A stretch of 30,430 nt of DNA. Source: an uncultured Thermodesulfobacteriota bacterium (lineage in GTDB: Bacteria > Desulfobacterota > B13-G15 > RBG-16-54-18). Below the pieces are notes generated by a model. The model did not search any database. It was not told where the DNA came from and saw only the letters and a list, made by a program, of their open reading frames with translations. Positions within the stretch are counted from its first letter, which is position 1, and every line of letters starts with the position of its first letter. This document shows positions 4,844-28,183 of this stretch, one piece after another. Made by a program: the position numbers and the translations under genes. The stretch covers positions 1 through 30,430 of the forward strand of contig CAYQOD010000001.1 of assembly GCA_964419065.1 (NCBI GenBank), given 5' to 3'.

Positions 4844-4844
4844 C

Positions 4845-5321: not shown

Positions 5322-5331
5322 GTGATGAAAC

Positions 5332-5355
5332 CCGAAATCCCCATGGGGGTTTCGG
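5332..5355. repeat. Hairpin CCGAAATCCCC-ATG-GGGGTTTCGG
   Basis: 11-bp stem with one G-U pair; no U-tract follows. Confidence 0.6.
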
Positions 5356-5530
5356 TGCACCTCTGGCTAAAAACATACCTTCATTAAAAAAGTGATCAAG
5401 GATGCAAATAAAAGTTTCATAGTCCTCGTGAGCCATGAATCGAGCGGAAGGCCAGCCCCCTGAATCTTTGGGTCATGAGTTAAAAAATCTCCATACTGCT
5501 CCCCAAAAGGAAATATCCCATTGTGGGGGT

Positions 5531-5614
5531 TTCAGGGCCGATCATCGGCCCTGAAGGGAGGGCGAAGGCGACGATGAAGGTTGAAACCATTTCCAGCGTT
5601 TCTTCACGTCGCCT
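5531..5614. repeat. Two adjacent hairpins: perfect 12-bp palindrome (5531-5555) and an imperfect long stem (5566-5614)
   Basis: TTCAGGGCCGAT-c-ATCGGCCCTGAA; AGGCGACG(a)TGAAG ... CTTCACGTCGCCT. Confidence 0.7.
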
Positions 5615-5629
5615 CGGCATTAAATAGTT

Positions 5630-8028: not shown

Positions 8029-8036
8029 GAAGATCG

Positions 8037-8663: not shown

Positions 8664-9975
8664 GATCATTGTCCCTCGCTGGCCCAAGGACAGCTTCTGG
8701 GACGTCATCACCTTTAAGTTTCCCTCCCTGAACACCACTCTGCTGGCCGCCCTCACCCCGGTCGACCACCAGGTCTCCATCTACGACGAGAGCATCGTCC
8801 CCCTGGACCTTGATGAGAATTGTGACCTGGTCGCCATCACCGCCATGACCCCCCTGGCCCCTCGGGGATACGAGATCGCCGATGAGTACCGGCGCAAGGG
8901 GGTGCAGGTGATCATGGGAGGCATACATCCTACCTGGCTGCCTAATGAGGCTATCGCCCACTGCGATGCGGTAGTGATCGGTGAGGCCGATGAGATCTGG
9001 CCGGAGGTGGTGAGGGATGCGACCCGGGGGGAGCTGAAGCGGTTTTACCGGCAGCAGAGACGCACCGATCTCTCACGCCTACCCCTACCCCGTCGGGACC
9101 TCTTGAACTCCAAGGGGTACTTCTTCGAGAACACCATCCAGACCACCCGGGGGTGCCCCTTTGACTGTGAGTTCTGCTCCGTGACGGCCATCTATGGGGG
9201 GACCTATCGGACCCGCCCTCTCGAGGAGGTGGAGCGGGAGATCAGCTCCCTGCGTCGGGCAGCGGCCTACATCTTCTTCGTCGATGACAACGTCGTAGGC
9301 GACATCAGGTACGCCCGTAAGCTCTTCACCATGCTCTCCCAGTACCATCTGCGGTGGGTGAGTCAGAGTCCCATCACCATCGCCCAGAACGAGGAGCTGA
9401 TCCGTCTCATGGCTCGGGCAGGGTGCCACGGGATGTTCATCGGCTTTGAGAGCCTCAGCCCCAAGAACCTGGCCCTGATGGGGAAGAAGACCAACAAGGT
9501 GGAGCGCTACGAGGCGGGGATCAAGCGGCTCCATGACCATGGAATTGGGGTCCACGCCTCCTTTGTCTTCGGGTACGACTACGACGATCCTTCGGTCTTC
9601 GAGGGCTTCCTCTCCTTTGCTCACCGGACCAAGATCGATGGTGCCTTTTTGCCGATACTGACCCCCTTTCCCGGCACCAGGATCCACCAGCGGTTGAAAA
9701 AAGAGGGCAGGATCATCACCGAGGACTGGAGCAAGTACGATATGGCCACCGTGGTCTTCAGACCCAAGGGGATGACAGTCGAGCAGTTGCAGGAAGGGTT
9801 CTGGTGGGTCAACAGGGAGTTCTACTCCGTCCGCTCCATGTTCAGACGGATCTTTCAACCCTTCGCCCTGCGCCGAAGCCTTATCATCTTCGGACCTATG
9901 AACATCGGCCACTGGCCGGCGGTGCGCAGGGCCGAGCGGTATTTTTACCGAAAGGGGGCCCTGTCACATGCTTGA
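8653..9975 (+). CDS. B12-binding domain radical SAM protein
   Basis: Cobalamin-binding-like N-terminus (VAITAMT...VIMGGIHPT...VVIGEAD); TTRGCPFDCEFC; FVDDN; IGFES; LTPFPGT. Overlaps the upstream stop. Confidence 0.9.
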   Translation: MKIKIIVPRWPKDSFWDVITFKFPSLNTTLLAALTPVDHQVSIYDESIVPLDLDENCDLVAITAMTPLAPRGYEIADEYRRKGVQVIMGGIHPTWLPNEAIAHCDAVVIGEADEIWPEVVRDATRGELKRFYRQQRRTDLSRLPLPRRDLLNSKGYFFENTIQTTRGCPFDCEFCSVTAIYGGTYRTRPLEEVEREISSLRRAAAYIFFVDDNVVGDIRYARKLFTMLSQYHLRWVSQSPITIAQNEELIRLMARAGCHGMFIGFESLSPKNLALMGKKTNKVERYEAGIKRLHDHGIGVHASFVFGYDYDDPSVFEGFLSFAHRTKIDGAFLPILTPFPGTRIHQRLKKEGRIITEDWSKYDMATVVFRPKGMTVEQLQEGFWWVNREFYSVRSMFRRIFQPFALRRSLIIFGPMNIGHWPAVRRAERYFYRKGALSHA

Positions 9976-12475
9976 GCTCTTTCTGAAAAGGGCTGCTCGC
10001 CTCTCCGTGCGCCACCCCAAGCGGGTCCTGATCGCCTTTGTGCTGGTTCTCATCGCGGCCTTTCTGATCACCGGGAGGCTGCGCTTTGAGACCGATTGGT
10101 TGCAGCTTTTGCCCACCGACCAAGGGGCGCTCAAGGTCCTGGTGGAGGATCTGCGGGGGTTTGGCCAGTTGGAACGCCTCTATATCCTCGTGGAGGGGGA
10201 TCGGAAGGATACGATCATCGAGTCCGCCCAGGGGCTCAGGAGGTCTCTGGCCGAACTGGAGATCGGGGGTTCCAAGGCGTTTACACGGGTCTTTTCAGGA
10301 ATAGAAGCGGACCTTGCGGGATGGCAAGAGCTGCTTGACCTCTATGTCTCCCATCCCCAGCTCTACCTCAACGAGGATGAGGCGGGGGAGTTCACGGCGC
10401 GGCTCTCCGACGATAAGATCCGGGAGCAGATCCGCACGGCCAAGGGGCTGCTCATAAGCTACCTCTCCCCTGGCTGGAGGGATTTGGTCCTCACCGACCC
10501 CCTGGCGCTACGAGAACTGCTCTTGAAACGGTGGCAGGGAAAGTCCCCCTGGGCCCCCTCCCTGGCCGAGGGTTACCTCATCTCCCCGGATGGGGATACG
10601 CTGCTCATGGTGGCAGAACCGGCCTTCCCCTCTGCTGACTGGCGATCCTCCCAGGAGCTGGTGCAGAAGTTAAAGCCCATAACCAAGGCCTTTCCCCAGG
10701 TACGGATCTCCTTTGTGGGCCCCCATACCATGACCGTCGGCAAGGCGGGGGTGTTACAGAAGGATCTCCTCGTCTCCTTTGTGGGTTCGTTCATCATGGT
10801 GCTTGTCCTTTTCTATCTCGCCTACCGGCGGTGGGCAACGCTGCTCTTTGTCGGACTTCCGCTGCTGGTGGGGGTACAGCTCACCATGGGGGTCGCCGCA
10901 CTCTTTACCTCAGGGCTCAACCTCATCACGGTCTCCTTCGCTGCCATCATCGTGGGCTTGGGGATCGACTTTGCCATCCATATCTACCAACGCTACCATA
11001 ATGAACGCACAGCAGGTCGGGGGATGGAGACAGCGCTGGAGATCGCCCTGACGAAGACCGGAAAGGGGGTATGGACCGGAGGGCTTACCACCATCGCGGC
11101 CTTCCTCACCCTGGTACTGGCCCGCGTCAAGGGGATCATGGAACTGGGGGTGCTGGTCGCCGTGGGACTGGTCTTCTGCCTGCTGGCCACCTCCCTGGTG
11201 TTGCCCTCCTTTTTGGTCTGGATGGAGGGGAGGGGGTACCGGCATCGACCCCTGGGCGGGTGGGGTCTGGAGCGCCTCATCAATCTTCTGATAGCTCACT
11301 ATCGCACAATCATCATCGTCCTCATATCCCTGGCTATCGCCGGGGCATATCTGGGGGCTCGGGTGAAGATCATGGAAGGGGTGGAGGGATTTCGTCCCCG
11401 CGGACTGGAGGGCGTGCAGACCCTGGAAAGGATGCAGCAGGAGTTTGGAGGGGTAGGAAAGGGCATTACCGTGCTGCTCGAGGGAGCAGATCTGGATGGC
11501 CTCCTGCAGCAGCAGGAGGCCATCGCGGCATCCCTCCAGGATGAGTATGGGGAGAAAATCCTGTTTTTCTCTCACCTGGCCCAGTTTGCCCCCTCCACCG
11601 AGGGCCAACAACGGGTGCTGGCGGCGCTCCGTCAGGGGATGGACTACGAAAGGATCGCCCGATCCCTTACCACCGCCCTGAAGACAGAGGGCCTGAACCC
11701 GGCCCTCTTCGCACAACCCCGGCAGATGCTGCGGAGTCTGGCCCACGATCAAGTCCTCCTTGCCCCGACAGCGCTCTTGCAACAGCTCGCCAGCACACCC
11801 TTGGCCGAGATAATAGAGCGCTATGCGATGAAGACAGAGGGAGGGTACCGGTTGCGGCAGGAGATCCGATTCGATCCGACCGGGGTCGACCCCCTCCGGT
11901 TGCAGGAGGCGATCACGAGAATCGCCCCCCAGGCCCAGTGCACGGGCAACGAACTCATCGCCCTGGAATTGCGGGAGATGGTGAAACGCGATCTCACCCT
12001 CCTGGCTCCCCTGGCCCTGGTGTTGGTGCTCATTCTGCTCTTTTGGCACTTCAGAAACCCCCTCTGGGTGGTGATGGCCCTGTCTCCCCTCTTGGTTGGG
12101 GTAGCCTACATGCTGGGGATCAGCGTCCTTTTGGGAATAGAGTTTAACCCGACCAATGCGGTGGCGGTTCCTTTGATCATCGGCATGGGAATCGACGACG
12201 GCATCCATATCGTCCACCGCTACCGCGAGAGGAAGGATGTGGCGTCGGCGGTCAGGTTTACGGGCAAGGCGGTCATCATGACCTCATTAACCACCATGGC
12301 GGGTTTCGGCTCGTTAAGTACCTCGCACTTTCCGGCCCTCTCCTCCCTCGGCAAGCTTGTCATCATCGGCATGGGGAGCTGCCTGCTCACCTCCCTGGTC
12401 TTGCTCCCGTCCCTTATGGTAGCGGTTGGTGGCAAAACAGGACAAAAGAAAAAGGGATCTTTAAAGAAGGAGTAA
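9968..12475 (+). CDS. MMPL/RND-family membrane transporter (HpnN-like architecture)
   Basis: Two TM bundles each preceded by a large soluble loop; motifs GLGIDFAIH and GMGIDDGIH; TTIAAF and TTMAGF repeats. Overlaps the upstream stop. Confidence 0.9.
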   Translation: MLELFLKRAARLSVRHPKRVLIAFVLVLIAAFLITGRLRFETDWLQLLPTDQGALKVLVEDLRGFGQLERLYILVEGDRKDTIIESAQGLRRSLAELEIGGSKAFTRVFSGIEADLAGWQELLDLYVSHPQLYLNEDEAGEFTARLSDDKIREQIRTAKGLLISYLSPGWRDLVLTDPLALRELLLKRWQGKSPWAPSLAEGYLISPDGDTLLMVAEPAFPSADWRSSQELVQKLKPITKAFPQVRISFVGPHTMTVGKAGVLQKDLLVSFVGSFIMVLVLFYLAYRRWATLLFVGLPLLVGVQLTMGVAALFTSGLNLITVSFAAIIVGLGIDFAIHIYQRYHNERTAGRGMETALEIALTKTGKGVWTGGLTTIAAFLTLVLARVKGIMELGVLVAVGLVFCLLATSLVLPSFLVWMEGRGYRHRPLGGWGLERLINLLIAHYRTIIIVLISLAIAGAYLGARVKIMEGVEGFRPRGLEGVQTLERMQQEFGGVGKGITVLLEGADLDGLLQQQEAIAASLQDEYGEKILFFSHLAQFAPSTEGQQRVLAALRQGMDYERIARSLTTALKTEGLNPALFAQPRQMLRSLAHDQVLLAPTALLQQLASTPLAEIIERYAMKTEGGYRLRQEIRFDPTGVDPLRLQEAITRIAPQAQCTGNELIALELREMVKRDLTLLAPLALVLVLILLFWHFRNPLWVVMALSPLLVGVAYMLGISVLLGIEFNPTNAVAVPLIIGMGIDDGIHIVHRYRERKDVASAVRFTGKAVIMTSLTTMAGFGSLSTSHFPALSSLGKLVIIGMGSCLLTSLVLLPSLMVAVGGKTGQKKKGSLKKE

Positions 12476-12677
12476 TGGGGCGGCTGCGTTTGAAGTGGCC
12501 TATGACTATTCTTAAGTGAGTCCAAAATTCTATTTGCACTCCATGCTATCACGATATATAGTTTGAAGGTGGAAAATTAAGGAGCGATTTCCCACATTTC
12601 AGGGGATAACATACCAATGATTTTATATGCTAATAGCAATATCAAGCAAAATTTTTCCATCTATTAACAAGATAAAA

Positions 12678-13427
12678 ATGAGAAACCCCATAAGGAGATA
12701 ATACATTAAAAGCATTTGGATAATTGGATTAGGTACCCTTATAATCTATTCTCTCCTGGGGAGTTTTTCGTACGCTCAAGAAAAGCATTTTCCTCTAAAG
12801 CTCCTTATAACATCAAATAAATCTGTATATCACAAAGGAGAACCTATAGACCTTAAAATTTCATTACAAAACGTGAGCAATCACCAAATAACGTTGTTCC
12901 ATCCCCCTTCTCTTAACATGGCATGGTATGAGTGGGAGCTGAAATGTTCTGTGTCAAAGCCGGATGGGAATCATATGACCCTTGAGCCAGAAATCATGTT
13001 TGCAATGATTCCCAGGGTAAGAAAAGAAGACTTTCACATATTGCATCCAGGTGAGACAATACATATCCCAGTACGATTAGAAATTGAAGGTGACCCATTA
13101 AAAACCCACACGAAAAGTGGTTGGGTGGCTCTCATGGAAATTACAAAGTTCGAAAGTACTCTACCACCTGAAGCATTAAAGAGGAAATATCATATACAAG
13201 GGGAGATGAGTTATATTACTGGAGGGAAAGAATACTTAGCCATAAGAGATATTCTTCGAGATGTGTTCAATCTGAACGGGGAGTATCAAATAGAAGTTCA
13301 CTATAGCAATTTTCACAATACATTTTTAGCACCAAACGAAGGAACCAGTTATTTAGTTCCTGTTAGTGTTCATAACGCTTGGACAGGAAAGCTCTCTGAA
13401 AAAACTGCAATAACTATCCAGAAGTAA
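12678..13427 (+). pseudogene. Exported hypothetical protein with an in-frame TAA at codon 8
   Basis: ATG 12678 is in frame with ORF 12873-13427: MRNPIRR*YIKSIWIIGLGTLIIYSLLGSFSYAQE..., open apart from TAA 12699-12701; signal-peptide-like N-terminus. Confidence 0.6.
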
Positions 13428-13430
13428 GGT

Positions 13431-13500
13431 ATCTAACACCGAGATGGAGTTGGACTTTGAGAGGCGCGGCAATCCGCACTGCTGAACTCAGCCGTCAGCT
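13431..13500 (+). mobile_element. Degenerate integron attC-like site
   Basis: ATCTAAC (fits RYYYAAC) 3 nt after a stop codon; GAGATGGAG/CTGAACTC L-box-like arms; degenerate R' GTCAGCT; 70 bp. Confidence 0.5.
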
Positions 13501-13547
13501 TATTGCCAGAAGACAAGGGCTGAAGCCTTTGAAGGAGGGGTGATGCA

Positions 13548-14072
13548 ATGGCTGTTCCTGTAGACCATCATAATTATGTAAAGATGATAAAAGCGAATAT
13601 GCTGTTTCGGTATATGTCAGAGGAGGAATTCTTAAAATTTCTCGCCGGAGCAGAACTCATGAAGTATACCAATGGTGAGATAATAATCTCCCAGGGTGAG
13701 GTAAGTCAGTTTTTGTACTGTTTGATTAAGGGGAGCGTTGAAGTTTCCGCATACGAAAAAGAAGACGATTTCTTTATTTACGCCCTCGAAGAAGGAGAAA
13801 TATTTGGAGAGGCCGCCCTTTTTCTGACCGAACTCAGAATTGCAAACGTGAAAAGTTCAGGGGATTCTCTTATCATCAGAATAAACAGGAGTAACTTAAT
13901 CAAATTCATCAGTGAATATTCTCAAGCGGGCAATAGGATTCTTATCATGATCATATACAGCCTTCTCAAGAAACTGCGAGCATCCACAAAGGAGATCACC
14001 GTAGCCAGGAAGCTGTATGCTGAGGTGAAAAAAATGAAAGCCCAAATGGAAAAGCTCTTACAAGAGTTATGA
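13548..14072 (+). CDS. Cyclic nucleotide-binding domain protein (Crp/Fnr-like sensor without an obvious HTH)
   Basis: IISQGE...LYCLIKGSVEV...GEIFGEAALF...RIANV; SD AGGAGG. Confidence 0.85.
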   Translation: MAVPVDHHNYVKMIKANMLFRYMSEEEFLKFLAGAELMKYTNGEIIISQGEVSQFLYCLIKGSVEVSAYEKEDDFFIYALEEGEIFGEAALFLTELRIANVKSSGDSLIIRINRSNLIKFISEYSQAGNRILIMIIYSLLKKLRASTKEITVARKLYAEVKKMKAQMEKLLQEL

Positions 14073-14115
14073 ACGGACTTTGAGAATCCCGCACCACTGA
14101 GTTCGATCGTTCGGC
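14068..14115 (+). mobile_element. Second, internally deleted attC-like site homologous to 13431-13500
   Basis: Shares GGACTTTGAGA (11/11), ATCC(C)GCAC and a CTGAxxTC box with the first site; TGAAC (containing the stop codon) pairs with GTTC of GTTCGGC. Confidence 0.45.
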
Positions 14116-14186
14116 GTATTGATCGGTTTGCCCAGACTATTCAATGAAGTAACCACTTGAGTCGATTGGGAGAAAGGAGCTAGCCT

Positions 14187-14648
14187 ATGGATTACGTACG
14201 TGATATAGACTCGCTTATCCATACCCTATACGAATCTATCTCTGGTCCAGCAGGACAAGAACGTCAGTGGGATCAGATGCGTCACATGTTTTTCCCGAGG
14301 GCTCATATGATAAGAACTTCTGTTGCAGATGATGGTACCCCTCTAGCCCTTGTAATGGATGTTGAAACGTACATTGAAACAACTTCTGATTACTTTCAAG
14401 AACATGGATTCTATGAACGGGAGGTTGCCCGTCGCACTGAGATATTTGGCAATATAGCTCACGTTTTCAGTACTTATGAGGCTCGTCATAGCCCGGATGA
14501 TCCTAGTCCGTTCAGACGAGGTATCAATAGTATCCAGTTATTTTATGCCGGACAGCAGTGGTGGATAATTAATATGATATGGGACAACGAACGTGAGGAC
14601 AACCCAATGCCGGCAAAGTATTTGTCGTCAGGATCAGACGAACGATAA
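14187..14648 (+). CDS. Hypothetical protein, NTF2/SnoaL-like fold
   Basis: YESISGPAG..R.WD, FYEREVARRTEIFGNIAHVFSTYE, RGINSIQL, WWIINMIW pattern; SD AAGGAG. Confidence 0.7.
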   Translation: MDYVRDIDSLIHTLYESISGPAGQERQWDQMRHMFFPRAHMIRTSVADDGTPLALVMDVETYIETTSDYFQEHGFYEREVARRTEIFGNIAHVFSTYEARHSPDDPSPFRRGINSIQLFYAGQQWWIINMIWDNEREDNPMPAKYLSSGSDER

Positions 14649-14761
14649 CGTAATCAGGCAGTGTAACGGACCGCTTGTACAAGACACATGAGATTACTGA
14701 CGGAGTACTTGCTGAACGAGGGCAAAGTTGGTATCCTCTGCTCAAGGTTACCACGCATTGA

Positions 14762-14900
14762 AGCTAACCGCGCTATCGAACGGATTATATCGACGACCAA
14801 ATGATTTGAAAGTACTTTGACCAAGTGAGGTGTAGTAAACAAACGGCGCGACAGTTCAAGGCGCAGTTGTTTCGTAGTTCGATGTTGCGAGGTGTTATCT
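14762..14900 (+). mobile_element. Possible third attC-like remnant
   Basis: AGCTAAC/GTTATCT outer pair and ATCGAAC/GTTCGAT inner pair, but the spacers (6 vs 10 nt) are non-canonical. Confidence 0.25.
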
Positions 14901-15674
14901 GTGAGAAAGGGACAGGTTAGAGGTATCATCTTTGATATTGATGGGGTGCTGGAATTTCAGGGGGAGGTCTATCCTGGGGCAATTAAAACCATCAATGTGT
15001 TGAGAAACAGAGGTATTGTTCTGAGATTCTTGACCAACAGTACACTGAAGAGCCGCACGTCTTGTGCTGAAAAGTTAAGGAAGGCTGGTTTCCGGGTATT
15101 CGATGAAGAAGTCATTACCGCTTCGTATGCCACTGCGGTCTATCTTGGAACGTTACAGCCTCGCTCCTGCTGGGTAATGCTGGAAAGGGAAGGGCTTGAT
15201 GAGTTCAAGGGCTTCCAGCAAGATACGGAGAATCCAGAGTACATCGTCGTAGGGGATAACAGAAGTAGGTTTGATTTCGAACATCTAAACAAAGCCTTGA
15301 GCCTGTTACTCAAAGGGGCGAAGTTGATAGGTATGCAGTCAGAGCTTATTGATACGAGCATGGGGGAGGCAGAACTGAACGTTGGCTCCTGGGTAGGAAT
15401 GTTAGAAAGAGCGGCTGGCGTGGAGACGACATACATAGGGAAACCCAATCCTTACGTATTTGATCTGACGGTGAAGATGATGGGACTGGACAAGAGTGAG
15501 GTGATTATGGTGGGGGACAGGGTGTCCACTGATGTGAAGGGGGCAAAGGAGTTTGGGATAAGGTCAGTTCTGTTGAGGACAGGCGAGTTCGATGAGAGGG
15601 AGCTCGATGGAAGCATCGAGCCGGATTTCATCTGCAATTCTGTAGGGGATGTGCTGGCAGTAGTTGAACAGTAG
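14901..15674 (+). CDS. HAD-IIA family hydrolase (NagD/LHPP-like)
   Basis: FDIDGVL, FLTN, GKPNP, MVGDRVSTDV. GTG 14901 chosen for GAGGT upstream (ORF opens at 14892). Confidence 0.9.
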   Translation: MRKGQVRGIIFDIDGVLEFQGEVYPGAIKTINVLRNRGIVLRFLTNSTLKSRTSCAEKLRKAGFRVFDEEVITASYATAVYLGTLQPRSCWVMLEREGLDEFKGFQQDTENPEYIVVGDNRSRFDFEHLNKALSLLLKGAKLIGMQSELIDTSMGEAELNVGSWVGMLERAAGVETTYIGKPNPYVFDLTVKMMGLDKSEVIMVGDRVSTDVKGAKEFGIRSVLLRTGEFDERELDGSIEPDFICNSVGDVLAVVEQ

Positions 15675-15861: not shown

Positions 15862-16599
15862 TTAATATTTAACCTCGGTGAGGAAGAGGCCGTGGGCAGG
15901 GGCGGTCATCCCTGCCCGGCGTCTGTCGCGGGCCCGAAGGATCTCCTCAAATTCCGCAGGGGAGGTCTTCCCCCGGCCCACATCCACCAGGGTCCCTACG
16001 ATGCTGCGGACCATCTCCCGCAAGAATGCATTGGCCTCCAAGACCACTATGATCAGGTCATTCTCCCTTCGTTCAATCTCCAGGCGCAGAACTTCCCTGA
16101 CCGAGTGGCGGTTCTCATCACCACTGGTCCGGAAGGAGGAGAAGTCATGAGTTCCGATCAGAACCTTCCCGCAACGCCGCATGGAGATGAGGTCGAGCTC
16201 ATGGGGGATAAACCAGGCAAAATGCCGCCGGATGGCCGAGGGATGGGAGCGGTTCAGGATACGGTATTCGTAGACCTTACTCTTTGCGCTGAAGCGGGCG
16301 TGAAAACCCTCCTCGGCCTCCTCAGCCGATCTGACGACGATATCTGGTGGCAGGAGGCTGTTTAACCCCCGCTGCAGGGAGGATAGATCTATGGTGCTCT
16401 CCGTTGTGAAGTTGGCCACCTGACCCAGGGCATGGACTCCGGCATCGGTCCTCCCCGCACCGATGAGGCTCACCTCCCCTTGGGTGATCTGGGCGATCTT
16501 CTCCCCCATCACCCCCTGAATGGTCCTGAGCCCCGGTTGGATCTGCCAGCCGTGGTAGGCGGTCCCGTCATACTCGATGGTCAGCTTGATGTTCCTCAT
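15862..16599 (-). CDS. truA: tRNA pseudouridine(38-40) synthase
   Basis: MRNIKLTIEYDGTAYHGWQIQ, GAGRTDAGVHALGQV, FHARF, APAHGLFL. Start ATG 16599 overlaps the upstream TGA. Confidence 0.95.
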   Translation of the reverse strand: MRNIKLTIEYDGTAYHGWQIQPGLRTIQGVMGEKIAQITQGEVSLIGAGRTDAGVHALGQVANFTTESTIDLSSLQRGLNSLLPPDIVVRSAEEAEEGFHARFSAKSKVYEYRILNRSHPSAIRRHFAWFIPHELDLISMRRCGKVLIGTHDFSSFRTSGDENRHSVREVLRLEIERRENDLIIVVLEANAFLREMVRSIVGTLVDVGRGKTSPAEFEEILRARDRRRAGMTAPAHGLFLTEVKY

Positions 16600-17723
16600 G
16601 GGACAAACCTCCTCAACCACCCCTCGTTGATCTGCACCGCCCCCTCCGGGCATATCTCCTGACAACAGTAACACCGGATACATTTTTTATAATCGATCCT
16701 TACCCCCATGTCGCTCAGGGATATCGCCTTGGGTGGACATATCTCGGCACAGACACCACACCCCTTGCAAGAGTCTCTCTCTACGACTGGCTTGGGGACA
16801 AAGACCTCCCTGAGTGTTTCCTTAACGAAACCGGGCAAACCCCACTCCAAATCAAATCGCCTGGGCAGGCGAAAACCCTCAGCTTTCACCTCCTCCACCC
16901 GCAGCCCCAGAACCGCTATTTTCTCCGGTTCTGTTCCCTCCAACCCCTTGCGGCGGGCGGCCTGGATGGTGGGGAGCTGCTCGGGGGCAACGCCGAGGAT
17001 CTGGCAGATGATGGTATCGAGGGCAAGGGGGTTTGCCCCGGCCAGGATCAGGCCGAGGGGTCGAGGATCTCCGCTTCCGGGGCCGTCTCCCTCCATGGCG
17101 ATGATCCCGTCCGCAATGGTCAGACCCGGTTTGACGATCTGGCAGATCTCAACCAACATACTGGCGAAATAGCGGTGATCTCTGCCCGCCTTCAGGTGCC
17201 ACTGGGCCTTGCGCATCCCTGGTATACAGCCAAAGATGTTCTTCACCCCCAGGGTGAACAACATCATCGTATGGGTCTTAACCTTGGGGAGGCTGATGAC
17301 CACATCGGCCTCCAGAACGGCCCTAGCCAGCTCAAATCTGCGAAAGGTATAATCCTCGCCGGTACGTATCTGAGCGACTTCTTCAAACTCAACGAGGGGG
17401 CAGCCCACTTCATTCGCCACTTCCTTCATCCCTGTCTGACCCGCAAGCCGGCGAAAGCTCCCCACGGAAGGGCTGTCCCCAATGAAAGGGATCCCACCCT
17501 CCTCCTGAACCAACTGGGCGGCAGCCTTCACCACAGAGGGGTGGGTCGTTACGCACTTGTCCGGGTGCTTAGCCGAAAGGAGGTTGGGCTTGAGCAGGAC
17601 CCGATCTCCCCGCCCCACGAATGCACCCATCCCGCCCAGGGGCTTTACTGCATCCCGCACCCCTGCCAACACCTGTGGGTAAGTGTAAGTAGGACACCTG
17701 GCGATGGAGACCCTCTCCACCAT
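16596..17723 (-). CDS. DUF362 domain protein with C-terminal 2x[4Fe-4S] ferredoxin domain
   Basis: VLLKPNLL, THPSVV, ISLPKVKTH, GVKNIFG, MEGDGP; CKGCGVCAEICP and CIRCYCCQEICP. Confidence 0.9.
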   Translation of the reverse strand: MVERVSIARCPTYTYPQVLAGVRDAVKPLGGMGAFVGRGDRVLLKPNLLSAKHPDKCVTTHPSVVKAAAQLVQEEGGIPFIGDSPSVGSFRRLAGQTGMKEVANEVGCPLVEFEEVAQIRTGEDYTFRRFELARAVLEADVVISLPKVKTHTMMLFTLGVKNIFGCIPGMRKAQWHLKAGRDHRYFASMLVEICQIVKPGLTIADGIIAMEGDGPGSGDPRPLGLILAGANPLALDTIICQILGVAPEQLPTIQAARRKGLEGTEPEKIAVLGLRVEEVKAEGFRLPRRFDLEWGLPGFVKETLREVFVPKPVVERDSCKGCGVCAEICPPKAISLSDMGVRIDYKKCIRCYCCQEICPEGAVQINEGWLRRFVP

Positions 17724-17892: not shown

Positions 17893-19185
17893 CTACGGTT
17901 CAAAGGCCTTGAAGAGAAGGACGCAGTTGACCCCGCCAAACCCCGCGGAGATGGAGAGGGCAGTCTTCACCTCCTTTGCTCGAGGTTCATTGGGGACATA
18001 GTCCAGGTCGCATTCGGGGTCCGGAAATTCATAGTTGATGGTAGGGTGAATAACCCCCCGTTCAATGGTGAGGATCGTAGCGATGGCCTCTGCACCCCCG
18101 TCCGCTCCGATGAGGTGACCGATCATCGACTTGGTGGAACTGATGGGTATCTGATAGGCGTAGTCCCCGAAGACCTTTTTGATGGCCTTGGTCTCGGTGA
18201 CATCATTCAGCTTGGTAGAGGTCCCATGGGGGTTGATGTAGTCGACCTCTCCGGGGGGGACCCCTCCCATTTCCAGGGCCAGCTCGATGGCCTTGCTCAA
18301 AGATGTGGCCGTTGGGTCCGGCTCGGCGATGTGGTAGGCATCAGCGGTCATCCCATAGCCGATGAGCTCGGCGTAGATGAGCGCACCCCTCTTGAGGGCA
18401 TGATTCAGTTCCTCCAAGACGATCACCCCTGCCCCTTCTCCCATGACGAAGCCATCTCGATACAGATCAAATGGTCGGCAGGCCTTGTGGGGTTCGTCGT
18501 TTCTGGTGGACATAGCCCGCAGGGCGATAAACCCCCCGAAAGAGAGGGGGGTGATGCAGGCGTCTGATCCACCGGTGAAGATCATCTCCTCAGGACCATC
18601 CTGAATTCTGCTGTAGCTGGTGGCAATGGCGTGGTTGGCCGAGGCGCAGGCTGAGGAGATCACATAGGTTGTCCCCCGGATTCCGAACCGCTCCGCGACG
18701 TTGGAGGCCACCGAACTGGTGTATACATTGGGGAGGGCGAAAGGGGAAATCCTCCGGGGACCACCGTGTTTCAGTAAGCTATCGTACGCGTCTTCCATAA
18801 TCTCCATGTTCTCGACCGCTACCCCCACGATCGCCCCTATTTTAAAGGGATCGGAGTGATTGAGCTCATATCTTCCCTCCACACCTTCTCGGGACAGGAG
18901 CTCTATCTCCCCATCTTCCAGGGCCAGTTTAGCCCCCACGAGGGCAAACTGAGAGGCCCTCCCCAGATATTTATCACCCTTGTGAACGGGGAGGTAATCA
19001 TGCACGGAGAAGTCCTTTATCTGTGCTGCTATTCTAGTCCTGAACTGCCCCATATCAAAATTGGGGAACCCTAAAAGATCTACACCCGATTTCCCCTCCA
19101 GGAGGGCTTTCCAATATGCCTCCTTGCCTATTCCGATGGGGGTAACCGGACCTAATCCCGTAATCACAATTCTCTTTCGCTTCAT
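17893..19185 (-). CDS. fabF: Beta-ketoacyl-ACP synthase II-like condensing enzyme (stand-alone, divergent)
   Basis: RIVITGLG, SACAS (catalytic Cys), NPHGTST and KSMIGH (catalytic His pair), FVMGEGAG, GFGG. Start ATG 19185. Confidence 0.85.
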   Translation of the reverse strand: MKRKRIVITGLGPVTPIGIGKEAYWKALLEGKSGVDLLGFPNFDMGQFRTRIAAQIKDFSVHDYLPVHKGDKYLGRASQFALVGAKLALEDGEIELLSREGVEGRYELNHSDPFKIGAIVGVAVENMEIMEDAYDSLLKHGGPRRISPFALPNVYTSSVASNVAERFGIRGTTYVISSACASANHAIATSYSRIQDGPEEMIFTGGSDACITPLSFGGFIALRAMSTRNDEPHKACRPFDLYRDGFVMGEGAGVIVLEELNHALKRGALIYAELIGYGMTADAYHIAEPDPTATSLSKAIELALEMGGVPPGEVDYINPHGTSTKLNDVTETKAIKKVFGDYAYQIPISSTKSMIGHLIGADGGAEAIATILTIERGVIHPTINYEFPDPECDLDYVPNEPRAKEVKTALSISAGFGGVNCVLLFKAFEP

Positions 19186-19228
19186 AGGCAAAGGTCGTTT
19201 CCTCACTATAAAGAATAAATTAAGCCTA

Positions 19229-19257
19229 ACGATAAAGGTATCGGAGAAATTTTTCAA
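19229..19257 (-). promoter_or_regulatory. Possible sigma70 promoter TTGAAA-N17-TATCGT for fabF
   Basis: Spacing is correct; hexamers are imperfect. Confidence 0.4.
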
Positions 19258-23556: not shown

Positions 23557-24399
23557 CTACAGGATCTGTATCTCCTCCAAGATGCGTTTTTTAGTCGCTA
23601 AAGGCTCATGCTCTTTTTGAGCCTTTCCTGCGATCTCTTTCCCGAGCAAGGCAGCGCCGAGGGCTCCGGTGATCAACGGCTCGTCAGGCACCACGATATC
23701 GTGGTCCAACTGCTCGGAGAGGGCCTTCACCAGACCCTTGTTCTTGCCCCCTCCACCGGTCAGGACAACGAGGTCTTCTACCCGAAGCCGATTGACCATC
23801 CTGACCACCCTATCCGCTAAGGATCTATGAACCCCGGCAACCAGATCAGGGATAGGCACCCCTCGCGCTAGGCTGGTCGCCACCTCCTGCTGCGCCCATA
23901 TGGTGCAGATGTTGCTAATCTGCGCTGGATTCGTGCTCTGCAGGGATCTATCCCCGATCTCTTCCAGTGGTATCCCCAGGGTATCGGCGATCACCTCAAT
24001 GAACCTGCCGGTACCCGCGGCACACTTGTCGTTCATAACGAAATCGATCGGCCTGCCGGTTGCATCCACCTTTATGGCCTTGCTATCCTGGCCCCCAATA
24101 TCGATGATGGTCTTGGCATCGGGGAAAAGGCTGAAAATCCCCCTGGCGTGACAGGTGATCTCTGTAATCTGTTTATCGGCAAAGGGGACGTTGATCCTCC
24201 CGTAGCCTGTAGAGACGATATAGGTGATTTTATCAAAGGGTATGCCTGCTTCCTTCAAGGCCTCTTCCATGACCTTGTTGGCGAGCCTGCGCTGTTCCGG
24301 GCCAGTGGGGCCTATAACCGAAGCGATGATCCCATCGTCCAGGATCAACGCCTTGGTCATAGTGGAACCGACATCAATGCCTGCAAAGTACGCCGTCAT
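23557..24399 (-). CDS. ASKHA-type ATP-dependent activase, BzdQ/BcrA(alpha)-like subunit
   Basis: GIDVGST, STGYGR, EITCHARG, DIGGQDSK, MNDKCAAGTG, SNICTIWA, LTGGGG, GALGAA. Confidence 0.85.
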   Translation of the reverse strand: MTAYFAGIDVGSTMTKALILDDGIIASVIGPTGPEQRRLANKVMEEALKEAGIPFDKITYIVSTGYGRINVPFADKQITEITCHARGIFSLFPDAKTIIDIGGQDSKAIKVDATGRPIDFVMNDKCAAGTGRFIEVIADTLGIPLEEIGDRSLQSTNPAQISNICTIWAQQEVATSLARGVPIPDLVAGVHRSLADRVVRMVNRLRVEDLVVLTGGGGKNKGLVKALSEQLDHDIVVPDEPLITGALGAALLGKEIAGKAQKEHEPLATKKRILEEIQIL

Positions 24400-24411
24400 T
24401 GCCCTCTGGTA

Positions 24412-25815
24412 CTATGCTGCCTTGCTCTGCCGGATGGACTCCAGGGTTTCGATGAAGGCATCGATCTTGTTTCGTGTGTCGACCTCTGAGTATGAGGTGA
24501 TATCGATAATATCACTCTCCAGAATCAGGGAAGGGAGTTCACGGTATACCGTCTCTTTCTTCCCGTCCTTTCCGAGCATTAAGACAGGGATGGGTTTATA
24601 GATCTTCCTTAATTGGTGCAGCTGCCAGATGAGGCCCACGTGCCATGTGCGGCATGAAAACGCCTCGTGCATGACCACACCGTCGATCTTATAGTCCTCA
24701 ATCCACTGGATCAGGCGCTCCACATCGGGCTCTGATCCAGGTCGGTTCCTGGCCCTGTCATACCAGAAGGTCCAATATCCGAGCCAACGCCATGCAATAT
24801 GTTCGATGGGGTCCTTGGTCTCGGGTATATCCATCTCATAGAGGGGCATGACCATCCGGTAGGTCGTCTCGACAGGGAAGGTGGCACCCTTGCTGTTAAA
24901 GTAGTTGAAGTCGTTGAGGGCAAACCAGGCAGGCAATCCCCCTCCCCACATGAGCCGGTATTTCTCATGCTCAACCTCCCCCTCTCCCCTGGCGATCTTC
25001 TCCTCCAATTCTTTCTTGAGATTTACAAAGAAATTGTAGGCCTCCTGGGTGGCCATCATGAAGCATATAGGCACCATGGTATTCATGGCATCACCGGTAC
25101 CCATAGGAGAAGGCACCGCCCGTCGCAACTCATATGTCTTGTGGATCAGGTTCCAGGTCCGATTGGCCAGGTCAACGAGCTCGCGCAGACGATCATAATC
25201 CATCTTCTTTCCGGTCTGCTCCTCACAGAATCTTACCAGTCCGCGCAGCTGCTCGACGATATATTTATGATAGTACCCCCACACCTCCCGGTGATCTCGT
25301 TGCGGATCAAAGAGCGGATAGGGGAGGTCAATATTGTAGACTGGCACATCCGGCATAAACTGCTGAGCTGCCTGGTACCACTTGGACCTCGGGTCACAGA
25401 GGATCTGCCCACTCGATATCATGAAATCAGGCCTCGCCTGTCCCCCCCACGGGGCATCGGGAGGCATATCCCTCAGTTCTTCCCGCCACTGATCAAACCC
25501 GAGCCCGCACAGGGCATAGGTACAGAGGGAGCGAGAAAAGCCTAAAGATTCCGCCCTTTGAAGGAATCGCTCGGCATCCCGCTTTGCCCCGCAGATACCG
25601 GCAAAGTTCTCAGTCCACAGAGGCAGGATATCCAGGGCACGGAGGATCTCTTCGTGATGACAGACGATAAAGGTATAGGCTATCTTCTGCCCTCCCTCTG
25701 CCCGTGCCCGAAGGGTTCCGGCAATAAACTCCTTGACCATGGGGCCGATGGAGGCAGCCGCTTGGGTTGCGGTCATCCTCTTTTTGTGCTCTTTCTCTTT
25801 CTGTTCCTCAGCCAT
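24412..25815 (-). CDS. 2-hydroxyacyl-CoA dehydratase/benzoyl-CoA reductase family subunit, BzdO/BcrB(beta)-like
   Basis: ENF...C...AE..GFSRSLCTY, PDF...LCD.RSKWYQ, DLP, YRLMWGGG, IDGVVMHEAFSCR. Confidence 0.8.
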   Translation of the reverse strand: MAEEQKEKEHKKRMTATQAAASIGPMVKEFIAGTLRARAEGGQKIAYTFIVCHHEEILRALDILPLWTENFAGICGAKRDAERFLQRAESLGFSRSLCTYALCGLGFDQWREELRDMPPDAPWGGQARPDFMISSGQILCDPRSKWYQAAQQFMPDVPVYNIDLPYPLFDPQRDHREVWGYYHKYIVEQLRGLVRFCEEQTGKKMDYDRLRELVDLANRTWNLIHKTYELRRAVPSPMGTGDAMNTMVPICFMMATQEAYNFFVNLKKELEEKIARGEGEVEHEKYRLMWGGGLPAWFALNDFNYFNSKGATFPVETTYRMVMPLYEMDIPETKDPIEHIAWRWLGYWTFWYDRARNRPGSEPDVERLIQWIEDYKIDGVVMHEAFSCRTWHVGLIWQLHQLRKIYKPIPVLMLGKDGKKETVYRELPSLILESDIIDITSYSEVDTRNKIDAFIETLESIRQSKAA

Positions 25816-25831
25816 CGCCTAAACCCTCCTC

Positions 25832-25873
25832 ATCCCCCCTCATCCCCCTTTAGAAAAGGGGGGATGGGGGGAT
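25832..25873. repeat. REP-like C/G-rich hairpin between the two reductase subunit genes
   Basis: ATCCCCCC(t)CATCCCCCTT-TAGAA-AAGGGGGGATGGGGGGAT. Confidence 0.75.
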
Positions 25874-25891
25874 TTGAATTGGAAATCCTCT

Positions 25892-27052
25892 TTAGCCGAT
25901 CATCTCAAGAAACGCCTGGATCCTCGTCTTGAGTTGGCCGATGGTCCCTGCCGAGTAGAGATCTTCCAGGTGGAGGACCGGGAGATTGATGGATTGGTAG
26001 TACGCCTTTCGTGCGGGGACCTCAAACCCGAAGGGATCGCAGTATTTATACACGTAGAGGATTGCGCCGTCTACATTGAACTCCTTGGCATATGTCCCGA
26101 TATCACCGAACCGGTTGGCGATATCCCCCTCGAAGGTCCCCGCCGTATTCTCCCGGAAGGTCTTGGGACAGTTGACCTTATCCAGATACCGGCGACCAAG
26201 GGCCTCTATAGGATTTCCTTCGACATCAGTACGGGGGAAGTAATCCCTGGTCCCGTTGCAGAGGGTATCAGCCACTACAGTGGCCCCGAGTTCCTCCACG
26301 AGCTTGACCATCTCAATGTTATCCACACAGGGGCCATCGATGAGTATCCGCGGGCCTTTCTTCAGCAAAGATCTCTTCCTTCGACCAATCTCCGCCACGA
26401 TCTCGTCGAAGAGGGCATTGGCCTCGGTAACGGGCAGGCTCGATCCGACGGTGAGCACCATCATCACCTCTGTCCCTGAGATCAGGGGTGGATTAGCTTT
26501 CCTGAATTCATAGAGGGTCCGCGCCTTATCCCTCTTTTCATTGTGCAGTCGGATGGCCTCGGACAAGTCTTCGTCGGTGATCTCTTTGCCGACAAACTCT
26601 CCCAAGGTTTTTCGGAACGTGTCCAACTCTGCATTAAAAAAATCAAAGGATGATGGATCGCAGACTGTGGGGACGTTGACGAAGTGGAAGTACGGAATTC
26701 CCAGTGAGTAGCTCCAAACGCTGTAGCTCCTGACCATGCTGTCACAGGCGTGAGGAATGACCATCCCGGAGAGAAAGGCGTATCTGCCCTTCACCGAAAG
26801 ATCAAAACAGCTCCGGTAAAAGGGACACACGATGGTCTCCAGGAGGGTATCCCCTTTGGTGATGGGCTCATGGATGTCTCCCCGTACCCGAAAGGGGACA
26901 CATTCGGCTGCCGTGATCATCTCCAGGGGGACCAAGGAACAGACATAGCCGATCACCTTTGTACCTTTAGCGTTCAACTCCTTTGCCCGTACGCCATAAT
27001 CCTTGTAAAGTTCTTCTACCTTCGACAGTGCGTTACCCTTGGCTTCACTCAT
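25892..27052 (-). CDS. 2-hydroxyacyl-CoA dehydratase/benzoyl-CoA reductase family subunit, BzdN/BcrC(gamma)-like
   Basis: VIGYVCSLVPLEMI, CPFYRSC, PHACDS, DTLCNG, DGAILYVYKYCDP, TRIQAFLEM. Start ATG 27052 (SD GGAGA). Confidence 0.85.
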   Translation of the reverse strand: MSEAKGNALSKVEELYKDYGVRAKELNAKGTKVIGYVCSLVPLEMITAAECVPFRVRGDIHEPITKGDTLLETIVCPFYRSCFDLSVKGRYAFLSGMVIPHACDSMVRSYSVWSYSLGIPYFHFVNVPTVCDPSSFDFFNAELDTFRKTLGEFVGKEITDEDLSEAIRLHNEKRDKARTLYEFRKANPPLISGTEVMMVLTVGSSLPVTEANALFDEIVAEIGRRKRSLLKKGPRILIDGPCVDNIEMVKLVEELGATVVADTLCNGTRDYFPRTDVEGNPIEALGRRYLDKVNCPKTFRENTAGTFEGDIANRFGDIGTYAKEFNVDGAILYVYKYCDPFGFEVPARKAYYQSINLPVLHLEDLYSAGTIGQLKTRIQAFLEMIG

Positions 27053-27313
27053 CGGTTCTTCTCCCTTTCGCAGTCTCACTGTTAGATCACCATAACGTGC
27101 GTAAAACGGCAAGAGTTCGTTTTGTGGAGAGGTGCGTAGCAAAAGGAAAATCCCCATCTATCCCCGTAAAGGGGCTTGTTAAATTATACACATGCGAGAA
27201 ATGAAAGGCAATAAGAATATCGGCAGCTGAACTAAATAGTGTGAATAACGGTGTAGTAGCAGATAGGATAGAGGTCCCCGACTGATCTGCTACTGGCATG
27301 AACGACCTCTTTA

Positions 27314-28105
27314 TCAGGTCCCTATCTGTCCCCTGGCGATGATCGCTGCGCCGAGGGCGGCCGTCATATGGGGCTGGTGCGGCACGATGATCTCATGCCC
27401 TCTGATCTCCTTCAGGGCCTGGACAAGGCCTGCATCCCTTGCTCCGCCGCCCACCAGGGCCACGTCCTGCTCAACACCGACCCTCTCTGCCAGGCTGTTG
27501 ATCTGGGCCACCAGGGCCCTGTGCAGCCCTGCCAGGAGGTTTTCCTTGGCAGCACCCTCGGCGATCCTGGATATCGCCTCGGACTCCGCAAAGACGGCGC
27601 ACCCTGTGTTGAAACCCACCCTCTTTTTTGATTGTAAGGAAAGGGCTCCGATATCTTCCACCTTGACCTGTAACACCTTGGCAATTACCTGCAAGATCCT
27701 GCCGCTACCGCCGGCGCACTTGCCGCTCAACAGAAAGTTTTGTACGCTTCCGTTACCATCTATGCGAATGATCTTTGTATAGAGATCACCTACATCGATG
27801 ACGGTCCTCACCGAAGGAAAAAGCGATGAGACTCCTTTGACGTGACAGACGATATCATGTCTCACCTCATCGGCAAAGGTCACCTGTTTTGATCCATATC
27901 CAGTGGCGACGGTACGCGCAATATCCTCTTTTGTTATACCTGCCTCAGAAAGGAGTGTTTTCCGTATCCGATCAGCGGTGGCCTGGTAATCTCCCCCTGA
28001 CGGGCACTCAAAGGACGCCATGGGTTTGTGGTCACCGAGGATGATCCCCTTCGAGAAACATGAACCGATATCGATGCCCAATACAAAGGCCGCTTTTGTT
28101 CTCAC
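27314..28105 (-). CDS. Second ASKHA-type activase, BzdP/BcrD(delta)-like subunit
   Basis: GIDIGS, ATGYG, VIDVGDLYTK (instead of DIGGQD), SGKCAGGSG, TGCAVFAESE, LVGGGA, AALGAA. GTG 28105 preferred; ORF opens at 28132. Confidence 0.8.
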   Translation of the reverse strand: MRTKAAFVLGIDIGSCFSKGIILGDHKPMASFECPSGGDYQATADRIRKTLLSEAGITKEDIARTVATGYGSKQVTFADEVRHDIVCHVKGVSSLFPSVRTVIDVGDLYTKIIRIDGNGSVQNFLLSGKCAGGSGRILQVIAKVLQVKVEDIGALSLQSKKRVGFNTGCAVFAESEAISRIAEGAAKENLLAGLHRALVAQINSLAERVGVEQDVALVGGGARDAGLVQALKEIRGHEIIVPHQPHMTAALGAAIIARGQIGT

Positions 28106-28154
28106 GTCATTCTTCTCATGTCTGGACAACAATGAGACAGCTTAATATATCAAA

Positions 28155-28183
28155 AAAATAGTGATCTCGATACCGAGAGTCAA
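28155..28183 (-). promoter_or_regulatory. Sigma70 promoter TTGACT-N17-TATTTT for the reductase operon
   Basis: Correct spacing; the spacer holds a small palindrome TCTCG-N4-CGAGA. Confidence 0.5.

Follow-up and report, generated by a model that had tools for sequence, protein, structure and literature searches.

A predicted ATP-dependent iron-sulfur radical enzyme from a deep branch of the benzoyl-CoA reductase/2-hydroxyacyl-CoA dehydratase family in an uncultured Thermodesulfobacteriota bacterium

A four-gene operon and its proposed dehydratase-type function

The minus strand of positions 23557-28183 in a 30,430-nucleotide stretch of DNA from an uncultured Thermodesulfobacteriota bacterium (contig CAYQOD010000001.1 of assembly GCA_964419065.1, hereafter the window) carries, according to its list of open reading frames (ORFs) and its sequence, four same-direction ORFs in the order D-C-B-A. 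As judged from sequence comparison, these genes encode a four-protein, ATP-dependent iron-sulfur radical enzyme of the family that comprises the benzoyl-CoA reductases (BCR) and the 2-hydroxyacyl-CoA dehydratases (HAD), and they appear to represent a deep, uncharacterised branch of that family. The best reading of the operon, which we put forward tentatively, is a ketyl-radical (R)-2-hydroxyacyl-CoA dehydratase-type enzyme equipped with BCR-like hardware, a reading favoured by the gene neighbourhoods of its relatives. Homology gives good support to the machinery that would inject the electron; the pairing of A with D, the cluster types, the direction of electron flow and the reaction at subunit B are what we infer.

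Gene D (27314-28132, 272 aa) is assigned to a degenerate paralogue of the activase-family ATPases, gene C (25892-27052, 386 aa) to an N-type (gamma, BzdN-like) subunit, gene B (24412-25815, 467 aa) to the O-type (beta, BzdO/HadB-like) catalytic subunit and gene A (23557-24399, 280 aa) to a canonical activase-type ATPase, all on the minus strand. D and A match the Pfam family PF01869 (E-values of 4.6e-50 and 7e-61) and the TIGR00241 model (212 and 274 bits), and C and B match PF06050, with Pfam E-values across the four spanning about 1e-50 to 1e-78. ORFs and Pfam thus agree with an earlier interpretation of this DNA made from its letters alone (hereafter the sequence-only reading), which had described a four-gene operon with two different HgdA/B-family subunits and two different activases. 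The motifs it quoted are likewise all present, DIGGQDSK with the cysteine contexts KCAAG/ICTIW in A and DVGDLYTK with KCAGG/GCAVF in D, and they are conserved in 76 A and 57 D orthologues. Two PF06050 subunits and two PF01869 ATPases also make up the Bzd-type BCR of Aromatoleum sp. CIB (BzdNOPQ; PDB 8S02), the ATPases of which are similarly short (about 270-280 aa), and a PF06050 alpha/beta heterodimer is found in the (R)-2-hydroxyisocaproyl-CoA dehydratase of Clostridioides difficile (HadBC, activated by HadI; PDB 3O3M, 4EHT). Identity to the Bzd proteins is nevertheless only 20-32%, and the order of subunit types in the operon (D-N-O-A) differs from the N-O-P-Q order given by the bzd gene names.

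Distribution and conservation

Relatives of B number 862 in a protein collection clustered at 90% identity; the best 120 of them are 72-88% identical to it and come nearly all from Thermodesulfobacteriota metagenome-assembled genomes (MAGs), with the addition of strain NaphS2. Among contigs representing one genome per species, 133 loci contain a B relative, and the best 80 of these, at 75-90% identity, constitute the orthologous group to which all counts out of 80 refer. The group spans Syntrophaceae (including Syntrophus buswellii DM-2), Syntrophorhabdus, Desulfatiglandales, NaphS2 and MAGs labelled 'Desulfobacteraceae'. With at least 80 species-level genomes carrying B at this level of identity, the operon is not the orphan that the sequence-only reading had taken it to be; it is a common one among Deltaproteobacteria of syntrophic and sulfate-reducing habit. 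The D-C-B-A order is kept in about 56 of the 80 loci, and about nine loci of a more divergent subclade present only C-B-A locally; one further locus (L037) shows just C-B. Mean column identity is highest for B (0.83), followed by A (0.72) and by C and D (0.65 each). A wider search through 1.8 billion cluster representatives recovered 1229 B relatives, the best 150 of which all score at least 127 bits, above every characterised enzyme.

An S. buswellii-like orthologue is transcribed in anaerobic-digester metatranscriptomes, where RNA contigs span the D/C and B/A junctions; no RNA run with the window itself was found among public runs. Public runs that carry the label 'fossil metagenome' (X1-X10) contain DNA nearly identical to positions 23557-28183, sharing 0.81-1.00 of the words sampled, and the source organism therefore probably belongs to sediment or ancient-sample microbiomes.

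Gene neighbourhoods of the orthologous group and its sister clade

An AMP-forming acyl-CoA ligase adjoins the operon in 22 of the 80 loci, almost always directly upstream and on the same strand, and in at least 15 of these 22 the ligase is itself preceded by a Liv-type ABC importer. The ligases fall into two orthogroups. LIG-I (17 of the 22 loci, about 80% mutual identity) usually follows LivH-LivM-LivFG and a long acyl-CoA synthetase, and LIG-II (the other five loci) shares about 34% identity with LIG-I and occurs together with a divergent thiolase and with a GlcD+FeS+CCG fusion of 863 aa that scores 391 bits against the NCBIfam model for GlcD and 209 bits against that for YdiJ (D-2-hydroxyglutarate dehydrogenase). 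Both orthogroups resemble FadD13, FadD5 and feruloyl-CoA synthetase, not benzoate-CoA ligase. GlcD/GlcF-type D-2-hydroxyacid dehydrogenases lie near the operon in at least five orthologous genomes, either fused and co-directional upstream, together with ligase and thiolase, or fused and divergent downstream (L081-83), or as split GlcD and GlcF genes directly upstream.

Seven orthologous contigs were annotated with Pfam (L081-L083, L091, L092, one further contig and the NaphS2 locus), and all 80 loci were screened for recurrent neighbours by clustering of neighbouring ORFs and by tblastn. Genes for dienoyl-CoA hydratase, hydroxyacyl-CoA dehydrogenase, ring hydrolase, ferredoxin and 2-oxoglutarate:ferredoxin oxidoreductase were seen in none of the seven annotated contigs and do not recur among the 80 loci; an enoyl-CoA hydratase from the sister clade, used as query against the orthologous-group loci, gave no match, and no recognisable set of dearomatisation genes was seen at any of them. 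In NaphS2, the orthologue follows a sigma-54 two-component system.

The nearest sister clade (the P0122 group), found in Chloroflexota, Syntrophaceae, Spirochaetota and other lineages, has a B-type subunit 46-48% identical to B and shares with the operon proteins the six cysteines and the C-D-x-R and C-R-T motifs discussed below. In four of seven sister contigs, the N-O pair has a D-isomer 2-hydroxyacid dehydrogenase (2-Hacid_dh) no more than about 3 kb away, directly upstream in three; a family III CoA-transferase (CoA_transf_3) is present in three of the seven, and a 2-oxoacid or indolepyruvate:ferredoxin oxidoreductase in two. Sets of short-chain dehydrogenase/reductase (SDR), enoyl-CoA hydratase and DUF35/thiolase genes stand downstream, and these contigs also hold TRAP or Liv transporters, AMP ligases and OYE/FadH-like reductases. 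Such neighbourhoods match the gene logic of a route from 2-oxoacid to (R)-2-hydroxyacid, CoA ester, 2-enoyl-CoA and finally beta-oxidation. The Had system, too, has 2-hydroxyacid dehydrogenases and CoA-activating enzymes nearby, although it activates its substrate with a family III transferase, whereas AMP-forming ligases serve the orthologous group and some sister loci use a transferase.

Some neighbours are rarer. An MmdA-like carboxyltransferase is encoded near the operon in two to three genomes (L069, 12999-14567; L091, 12513-14424; L005, 920-2452), with a biotin carrier in L091. Its placement recalls that of gcdA beside hgdCAB in Acidaminococcus, but a hydroxyglutarate-pathway reading built on carboxyltransferase and biotin carrier (NaphS2, L091) was kept as no more than a hint, given that the protein is MmdA-like and confined to two to three genomes. 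Molybdenum-hydroxylase sets of the xanthine dehydrogenase/4-hydroxybenzoyl-CoA reductase family are the only aromatic-type neighbours seen: one adjoins the N-O pair of a sister-clade contig (L087, 10374-14648), and another lies a few kb from D-C-B-A in an orthologous contig (L091, 14779-18023).

The ATPase pair

Subunit A possesses DIGGQDSK at residues 100-107, Glu80, an NDKC motif and the bridging-cluster cysteines Cys126 and Cys165, with GGQD and both cysteines invariant across its orthologues. It thereby holds every nucleotide-site element (GGQD, Glu base and NDKC) described for DCCP-R, the ASKHA-type ATPase with a bridging [4Fe-4S] cluster that serves DCCP in Carboxydothermus hydrogenoformans (PDB 6ENO, 7YYL), in which roles have been reported for G92, Q93, D94, E69, N112 and D113 (PMC9351452). 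D, a paralogue 39% identical to A, was aligned to HadI, HgdC, MbdQ, MbdP and DCCP-R. It retains the phosphate-1 and adenosine motifs and the bridging-cluster cysteines (Cys139 and Cys178), but its phosphate-2 motif (within DVGDLYTK, residues 113-120) reads GDLY in place of GGQD, and elsewhere Asp93 stands in for the Glu that is the candidate catalytic base and SGKC for NDKC. G115-D116-L117 and both cluster cysteines are invariant in the D orthologues, and the other changes are fixed or nearly fixed. With these changes fixed or nearly so, D is a conserved, probably non-hydrolysing partner, and A and D would assemble as a heterodimer.

A heterodimeric ATPase with one mildly degenerate subunit is known from the 3-methylbenzoyl-CoA reductase of Thauera chlorobenzoica (MbdONPQ; PDB 9G87/9GAI), where MbdP reads DIGGQTMK (GGQT for GGQD) and has Asp for Glu. 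Degeneration in D has gone further than in MbdP, and D is not its orthologue: when ortholog profiles were scored against the sequences of solved structures, the D profile gave 273 bits with HadI, 227 with HgdC, 224 with MbdQ and 152 with MbdP, and the candidate identification of D as a BCR delta subunit was rejected on these scores. Being closer to HadI than to MbdP, D implies that the ATPase asymmetry arose independently of MbdP, its gene stemming from a duplication separate from that in known BCRs. The A profile is about equally similar to MbdQ (292 bits) and HadI (288 bits), and in the PDB both ATPases match HadI best (for A, 240 bits against 234 for MbdQ). The history of the pair extends into the sister clade, in which contig L090 carries two ATPases after its N-O pair, 56% identical to A and 53% to D, along with a family III CoA-transferase and an indolepyruvate:ferredoxin oxidoreductase. 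The D-like protein of L090 reads DIGGQFSR, TDISCQ and LSEKCAGGSGR; since L090 carries orthologues of both A and D, the duplication would be older than both clades and D would have degenerated stepwise.

Cluster ligands and active-site residues of C and B

Six cysteines of C, numbered as in its 421-aa ORF (C73, C111, C138, C300, C330 and C373), align with the [8Fe-9S] double-cubane ligands C36/73/100/263/293/327 of BzdN and C76/114/144/309/341/374 of DCCP, and all six are invariant in 71 sequences. The double cubane of BzdN has been proposed to store two electrons, and the BzdNO structure from which this derives is the key for reading the residues of both B and C (PMC11971306). HadC lacks two of the six cysteines (the first and the fourth) and binds a [4Fe-5S] cluster instead, and MbdN, although part of a genuine aryl-CoA reductase, has three of the six. 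In view of MbdN, the double cubane is best regarded, on alignment evidence, as an ancestral trait retained by some members and not as a signature of reductases. The six-Cys motif was accordingly rejected as proof of a reductase, for MbdN does without it and sister-clade enzymes in HAD-like contexts have it. DCCP differs from the operon enzyme in being a homodimer with two double cubanes and in having no known CoA-ester substrate; here the motif is confined to C, and B has become a three-Cys subunit of the CoA-ester type that is devoid of distal-cluster cysteine ligands.

In B, C98, C140 and C388 would ligate a [4Fe-4S] cluster in which one iron site stays open; Glu69 corresponds to BzdO Glu65, and Tyr100 and Tyr319 correspond to the thioester-contacting Tyr97 and Tyr298 of BzdO. 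The three cysteines, Glu69 and Tyr100 have aligned counterparts in BzdO, MbdO and HadB, and none of them varies across 81 sequences, those of the window and its 80 orthologues. As HadBC also has a three-Cys catalytic [4Fe-4S] cluster with conserved Glu and Tyr, the site and its Glu do not discriminate between BCR and HAD. Other positions set B apart from BzdO: His131 is replaced by Arg143 in all 81 sequences, Gln274 by Leu and Glu381-Gly382-Leu383 by Arg-Thr-Trp (Arg-Thr-Val in MbdO). At the His131 position HadB has Val and MbdO has Phe, and in view of MbdO that histidine is not universal among BCRs. The motifs C140-D-x-R143 and C388-R-T-W are specific to the clade, and B has additional conserved cysteines at 52, 75 and 103. 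Cys52-His53-His54 sits in the beta1-alpha1 loop, where the position of BzdO Trp46 is uncertain, falling on Cys52 in HMMER and one MAFFT alignment and on Tyr47 in another MAFFT run.

Placement in the family

The operon proteins reach none of the equivalog cut-offs for BcrA-D (TIGR02259-63) or BzdN/O/Q (TIGR03190-92), scoring 71-190 bits against thresholds of 313-578. The double-cubane reductase model NF040772 (cut-off 350 bits) is the top NCBIfam match of C, at 208 bits, and gives 64 bits for B; among 112 full-length members of the wider clade, none comes near any curated NCBIfam cut-off. A profile of B built from this wider clade matches HadB best (359 bits), followed by BzdO (286) and MbdO (273). 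Foldseek places the AlphaFold2 model of B (pLDDT 93.7) equally near BzdO, MbdO and HadB (E-values of 3.7e-22, 1.7e-21 and 6.6e-21), and fold comparison was for this reason dropped as a discriminator. By profile score and predicted fold, B is equidistant from BzdO/MbdO and HadB. A neighbour-joining tree of the O subunit with 100 bootstraps, in which four orthologues and partial BzdO, MbdO and HadB sequences taken from the PDB joined 111 representatives of clusters formed at 50% identity, did not place the clade either, its deep nodes having support near zero. The sequence-only reading had named a grouping with dehydratases as one outcome that would speak against a reductase; the subunits group with neither family.

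Proposed mechanism and alternative readings

Under the dehydratase-type reading, the competent ATPase A and the degenerate D would each contribute two cysteines to a [4Fe-4S] cluster that bridges them, and the binding and cleavage of ATP at the sole intact site, in A, would push one low-potential electron onto the C-B heterodimer. The electron would enter through the six-Cys [8Fe-9S] cluster of C and pass to the three-Cys [4Fe-4S] cluster of B, where the acyl-CoA thioester would be bound with Tyr100 and Tyr319 touching its oxygen and Glu69 acting as acid/base. The resulting ketyl radical of the (R)-2-hydroxyacyl-CoA would lose its alpha-hydroxyl group to give a 2-enoyl-CoA bound for beta-oxidation, and the electron would be recycled, making the use of ATP catalytic and not stoichiometric. 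The substrate acid may be imported, produced by the D-2-hydroxyacid dehydrogenase, or both, before activation by the AMP-forming ligase; 2-hydroxyglutaryl-CoA is one candidate substrate. In favour of this reading, besides the neighbourhoods, D and A are as close to HadI as to the Mbd ATPases, or closer, about nine lineages with C-B-A only present a HAD-like three-gene layout, and a catalytic need for ATP would suit energy-limited syntrophs. B, moreover, has the HAD trait of a predicted three-Cys [4Fe-4S] site with catalytic Glu within a PF06050 alpha/beta heterodimer-type pair.

Several observations weigh against a dehydratase. The operon presents the subunit inventory of a class I BCR, with two ASKHA ATPases and two PF06050 subunits, and lacks the HAD traits of a reduced-Cys beta subunit and a single homodimeric activator; in the sole solved HAD structure the beta subunit is short of two of the six cysteines and one homodimeric activator is used (PMC11971306), whereas six cysteines and two ATPase paralogues occur here, as in the Bzd-type BCR. 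The HadB and HadC equivalogs (NF052455, NF052456) are missed by far, at 101 against 750 and 133 against 700 bits. The C profile prefers BzdN (206 bits) to HadC (152), DCCP (150) and MbdN (88), HadC being the one HAD beta subunit in the comparison, and the ortholog profile of B leans slightly to BzdO and MbdO (75 bits each) over HadB (64.5), sharing with MbdO an S-C-R-T motif after the third cluster cysteine. A minority of the loci and the sister clade together supply the neighbourhood evidence. The sequence-only reading had reported no CoA ligase adjacent to the operon, and for the window this holds, although not for the relatives: profile scans found no ligase, hydratase or ferredoxin gene adjoining the operon there, and dehydrogenase and transferase genes are likewise not found beside it. 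Literature searches, finally, found no characterised member of the clade.

An ATP-driven, two-electron reductase of the BCR type, in which A-D would consume ATP stoichiometrically and the [8Fe-9S] cluster of C would store two electrons, is the main rival and widens the idea of the sequence-only reading; it is possible but on the whole unlikely. Four subunits with two different ATPases match all class I BCRs, the six-Cys motif and the top C score both point to BzdN, Glu69, Tyr100 and Tyr319 of B have counterparts in BzdO, and C-R-T occurs in MbdO as well. The hosts include Syntrophus, Syntrophorhabdus, Desulfatiglans and NaphS2, known degraders of aromatics, and the ligase and Liv-type ABC transporter clusters of the relatives resemble bzd-type clusters for the uptake of aromatic acids. 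Class I-type, ATP-dependent enzymes do exist in strict anaerobes, as exemplified by the tetrahydronaphthoyl-CoA reductase of N47 and NaphS2 (PMC12016498). Identity with that enzyme was nonetheless rejected, because it is encoded by NPH_5888-5891 in the thn operon and the NaphS2 orthologue lies elsewhere. Against a reductase stand also the missed BCR thresholds, the invariant Arg in place of BzdO His131, a D subunit that is no MbdP orthologue, neighbouring ligases unlike benzoate-CoA ligase and the 2-hydroxyacid character of the sister-clade neighbourhoods, and stoichiometric use of ATP would presumably be expensive for syntrophs.

The class I BCR interpretation of the sequence-only reading is borne out in part: the subunit inventory, the deviant phosphate-2 motif of D and the six cysteines of C support it, but the Birch-type reduction of an aryl-CoA that it proposed is left without support. 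The equivalogs are missed, B is equidistant from the two families, D originated in an independent duplication, the operon is widespread, the six-Cys motif is not general to BCRs and occurs in sister HAD-like contexts, and dienoyl-CoA hydratase, ring hydrolase and ferredoxin genes are unseen at the seven annotated orthologous contigs.

It is also conceivable, if rather improbable, that the operon and its sisters in Chloroflexota and Deltaproteobacteria constitute a third functional type within the family, namely an ATP-driven two-electron reductase of strict anaerobes and syntrophs. All of them would combine a six-Cys double-cubane partner with an ATPase heterodimer of which one half is inactive. 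Such an enzyme might carry out the Birch-type reduction of an aryl-CoA not yet recognised, or act as a reductive alpha-dehydroxylase converting 2-hydroxyacyl-CoA directly to acyl-CoA; either way, with one nucleotide site out of action, each electron would cost it only one ATP.

We consider it quite unlikely that the two-electron capacity of the double cubane serves some other radical chemistry, with a 2-hydroxyacyl-CoA or a similar CoA ester as substrate, such as an ATP-driven reductive alpha-dehydroxylation to the saturated acyl-CoA, which would also accommodate substrates without a beta-hydrogen, like glycolyl-CoA or mandelyl-CoA. This proposal would reconcile BCR-like hardware (six cysteines and two ATPases) with 2-hydroxyacid neighbourhoods, GlcD belongs to the glycolate oxidase family, and the clade-specific Asp141, Arg143, Cys52, His53 and His54 lie at or near substrate-pocket positions of BzdO; yet it has neither precedent in the family nor direct evidence, and an enoyl-CoA product accords better with the thiolase, SDR and enoyl-CoA hydratase genes nearby. 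A small-molecule reductase of the DCCP kind (acetylene, azide or hydrazine type), with no CoA-ester substrate, is very improbable: the six cysteines shared with DCCP and the top NCBIfam match of C would agree with it, but that match falls under its cut-off, the enzyme is a heterodimer, B lacks distal-cluster ligands and keeps both thioester-binding tyrosines, and CoA ligases or CoA-transferases adjoin many relatives.

Locus architecture and other features of the window

In the window, the operon is flanked by a gene for GTP-dependent phosphoenolpyruvate carboxykinase (PEPCK) and another for a secreted retropepsin-like protein. The 272-aa product of D starts from TTG, and an alternative GTG at 28105 would yield 263 aa. 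For C, the full ORF extends over 25892-27157 (421 aa), but the likely true start is the ATG at 27052, just 5' of which stands AAGGGAGAAG as ribosome-binding site, and the resulting length of 386 aa agrees with that of the called genes in orthologous contigs (386-387 aa). A sigma-70-like promoter candidate (TTGACT-17-TATTTT, 9/12 matches; 28155-28183, minus strand) lies 5' of D, after a terminator-like hairpin that trails the PEPCK gene, with 28183 as its first base, and a second promoter-like site (TTGCCT-17-TATAAT, 10/12 matches; 27183-27211, minus strand) within the 261-nt D-C gap could yield a C-B-A transcript; the number of promoter-like sites in the region, both candidates included, does not exceed shuffle expectation, and they are weak to that extent. 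The 76-nt C-B gap contains a perfect-looking, G+C-rich 16-bp hairpin (25836-25871, minus strand) directly 5' of the B ribosome-binding site, which could affect mRNA stability or translation of B. An Rfam scan returned no match.

Elsewhere in the window, a polyamine set on the plus strand (4427-6484) consists of S-adenosylmethionine decarboxylase, pyruvoyl-dependent arginine decarboxylase and an agmatinase/arginase-family protein, and is preceded by a helix-turn-helix (HTH)-cupin regulator. Co-oriented plus-strand genes at 6526-12475 encode a flavin amine-oxidase/phytoene-desaturase-like protein (500 aa), an overlapping 318-aa ORF without Pfam match, a B12-binding radical SAM protein (440 aa) and an MMPL/RND-type transporter (835 aa), a combination that suggests a role in modifying and exporting lipids or isoprenoids. 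From about 12500 to 15000 the GC content is low, at 0.41-0.46 compared with 0.52-0.62 on either side; this stretch, which has two ORFs lacking a Pfam match and a cNMP-binding protein, may be acquired DNA. An ORF with DUF362 and two [4Fe-4S] motifs (16596-17723, minus strand) overlaps the TruA ORF (15862-16683) by 88 nt, one of the two start codons being probably mis-set, and a ketoacyl-synthase gene is next (17893-19257).

Significance

Within the family, reductases usually combine a heterodimeric ATPase and stoichiometric use of ATP with, in BzdN, a double cubane, and dehydratases a homodimeric activator and catalytic use of ATP with loss of the double cubane. The operon and its sister clade mix reductase-type hardware with dehydratase-type neighbourhoods, and the clade is abundant in Syntrophales, Desulfatiglandales, Chloroflexota and other lineages of anoxic sediments, aquifers and digesters. 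Annotation pipelines label its genes either 'benzoyl-CoA reductase' or '2-hydroxyacyl-CoA dehydratase', and such labels serve as markers of aromatic degradation. In coal-seam Syntrophaceae and Syntrophorhabdus MAGs, for instance, bcrB/C subunits were called by Prokka and none by BlastKOALA/KEGG (PMC10936416), a discrepancy consistent with clade genes having been mis-scored as BCR markers. Settling the function of the clade would therefore correct inferences on aromatic degradation, and the fixed degeneration of D, independent of that in MbdP, is an experiment of nature on whether uphill electron transfer can do with one ATP site.

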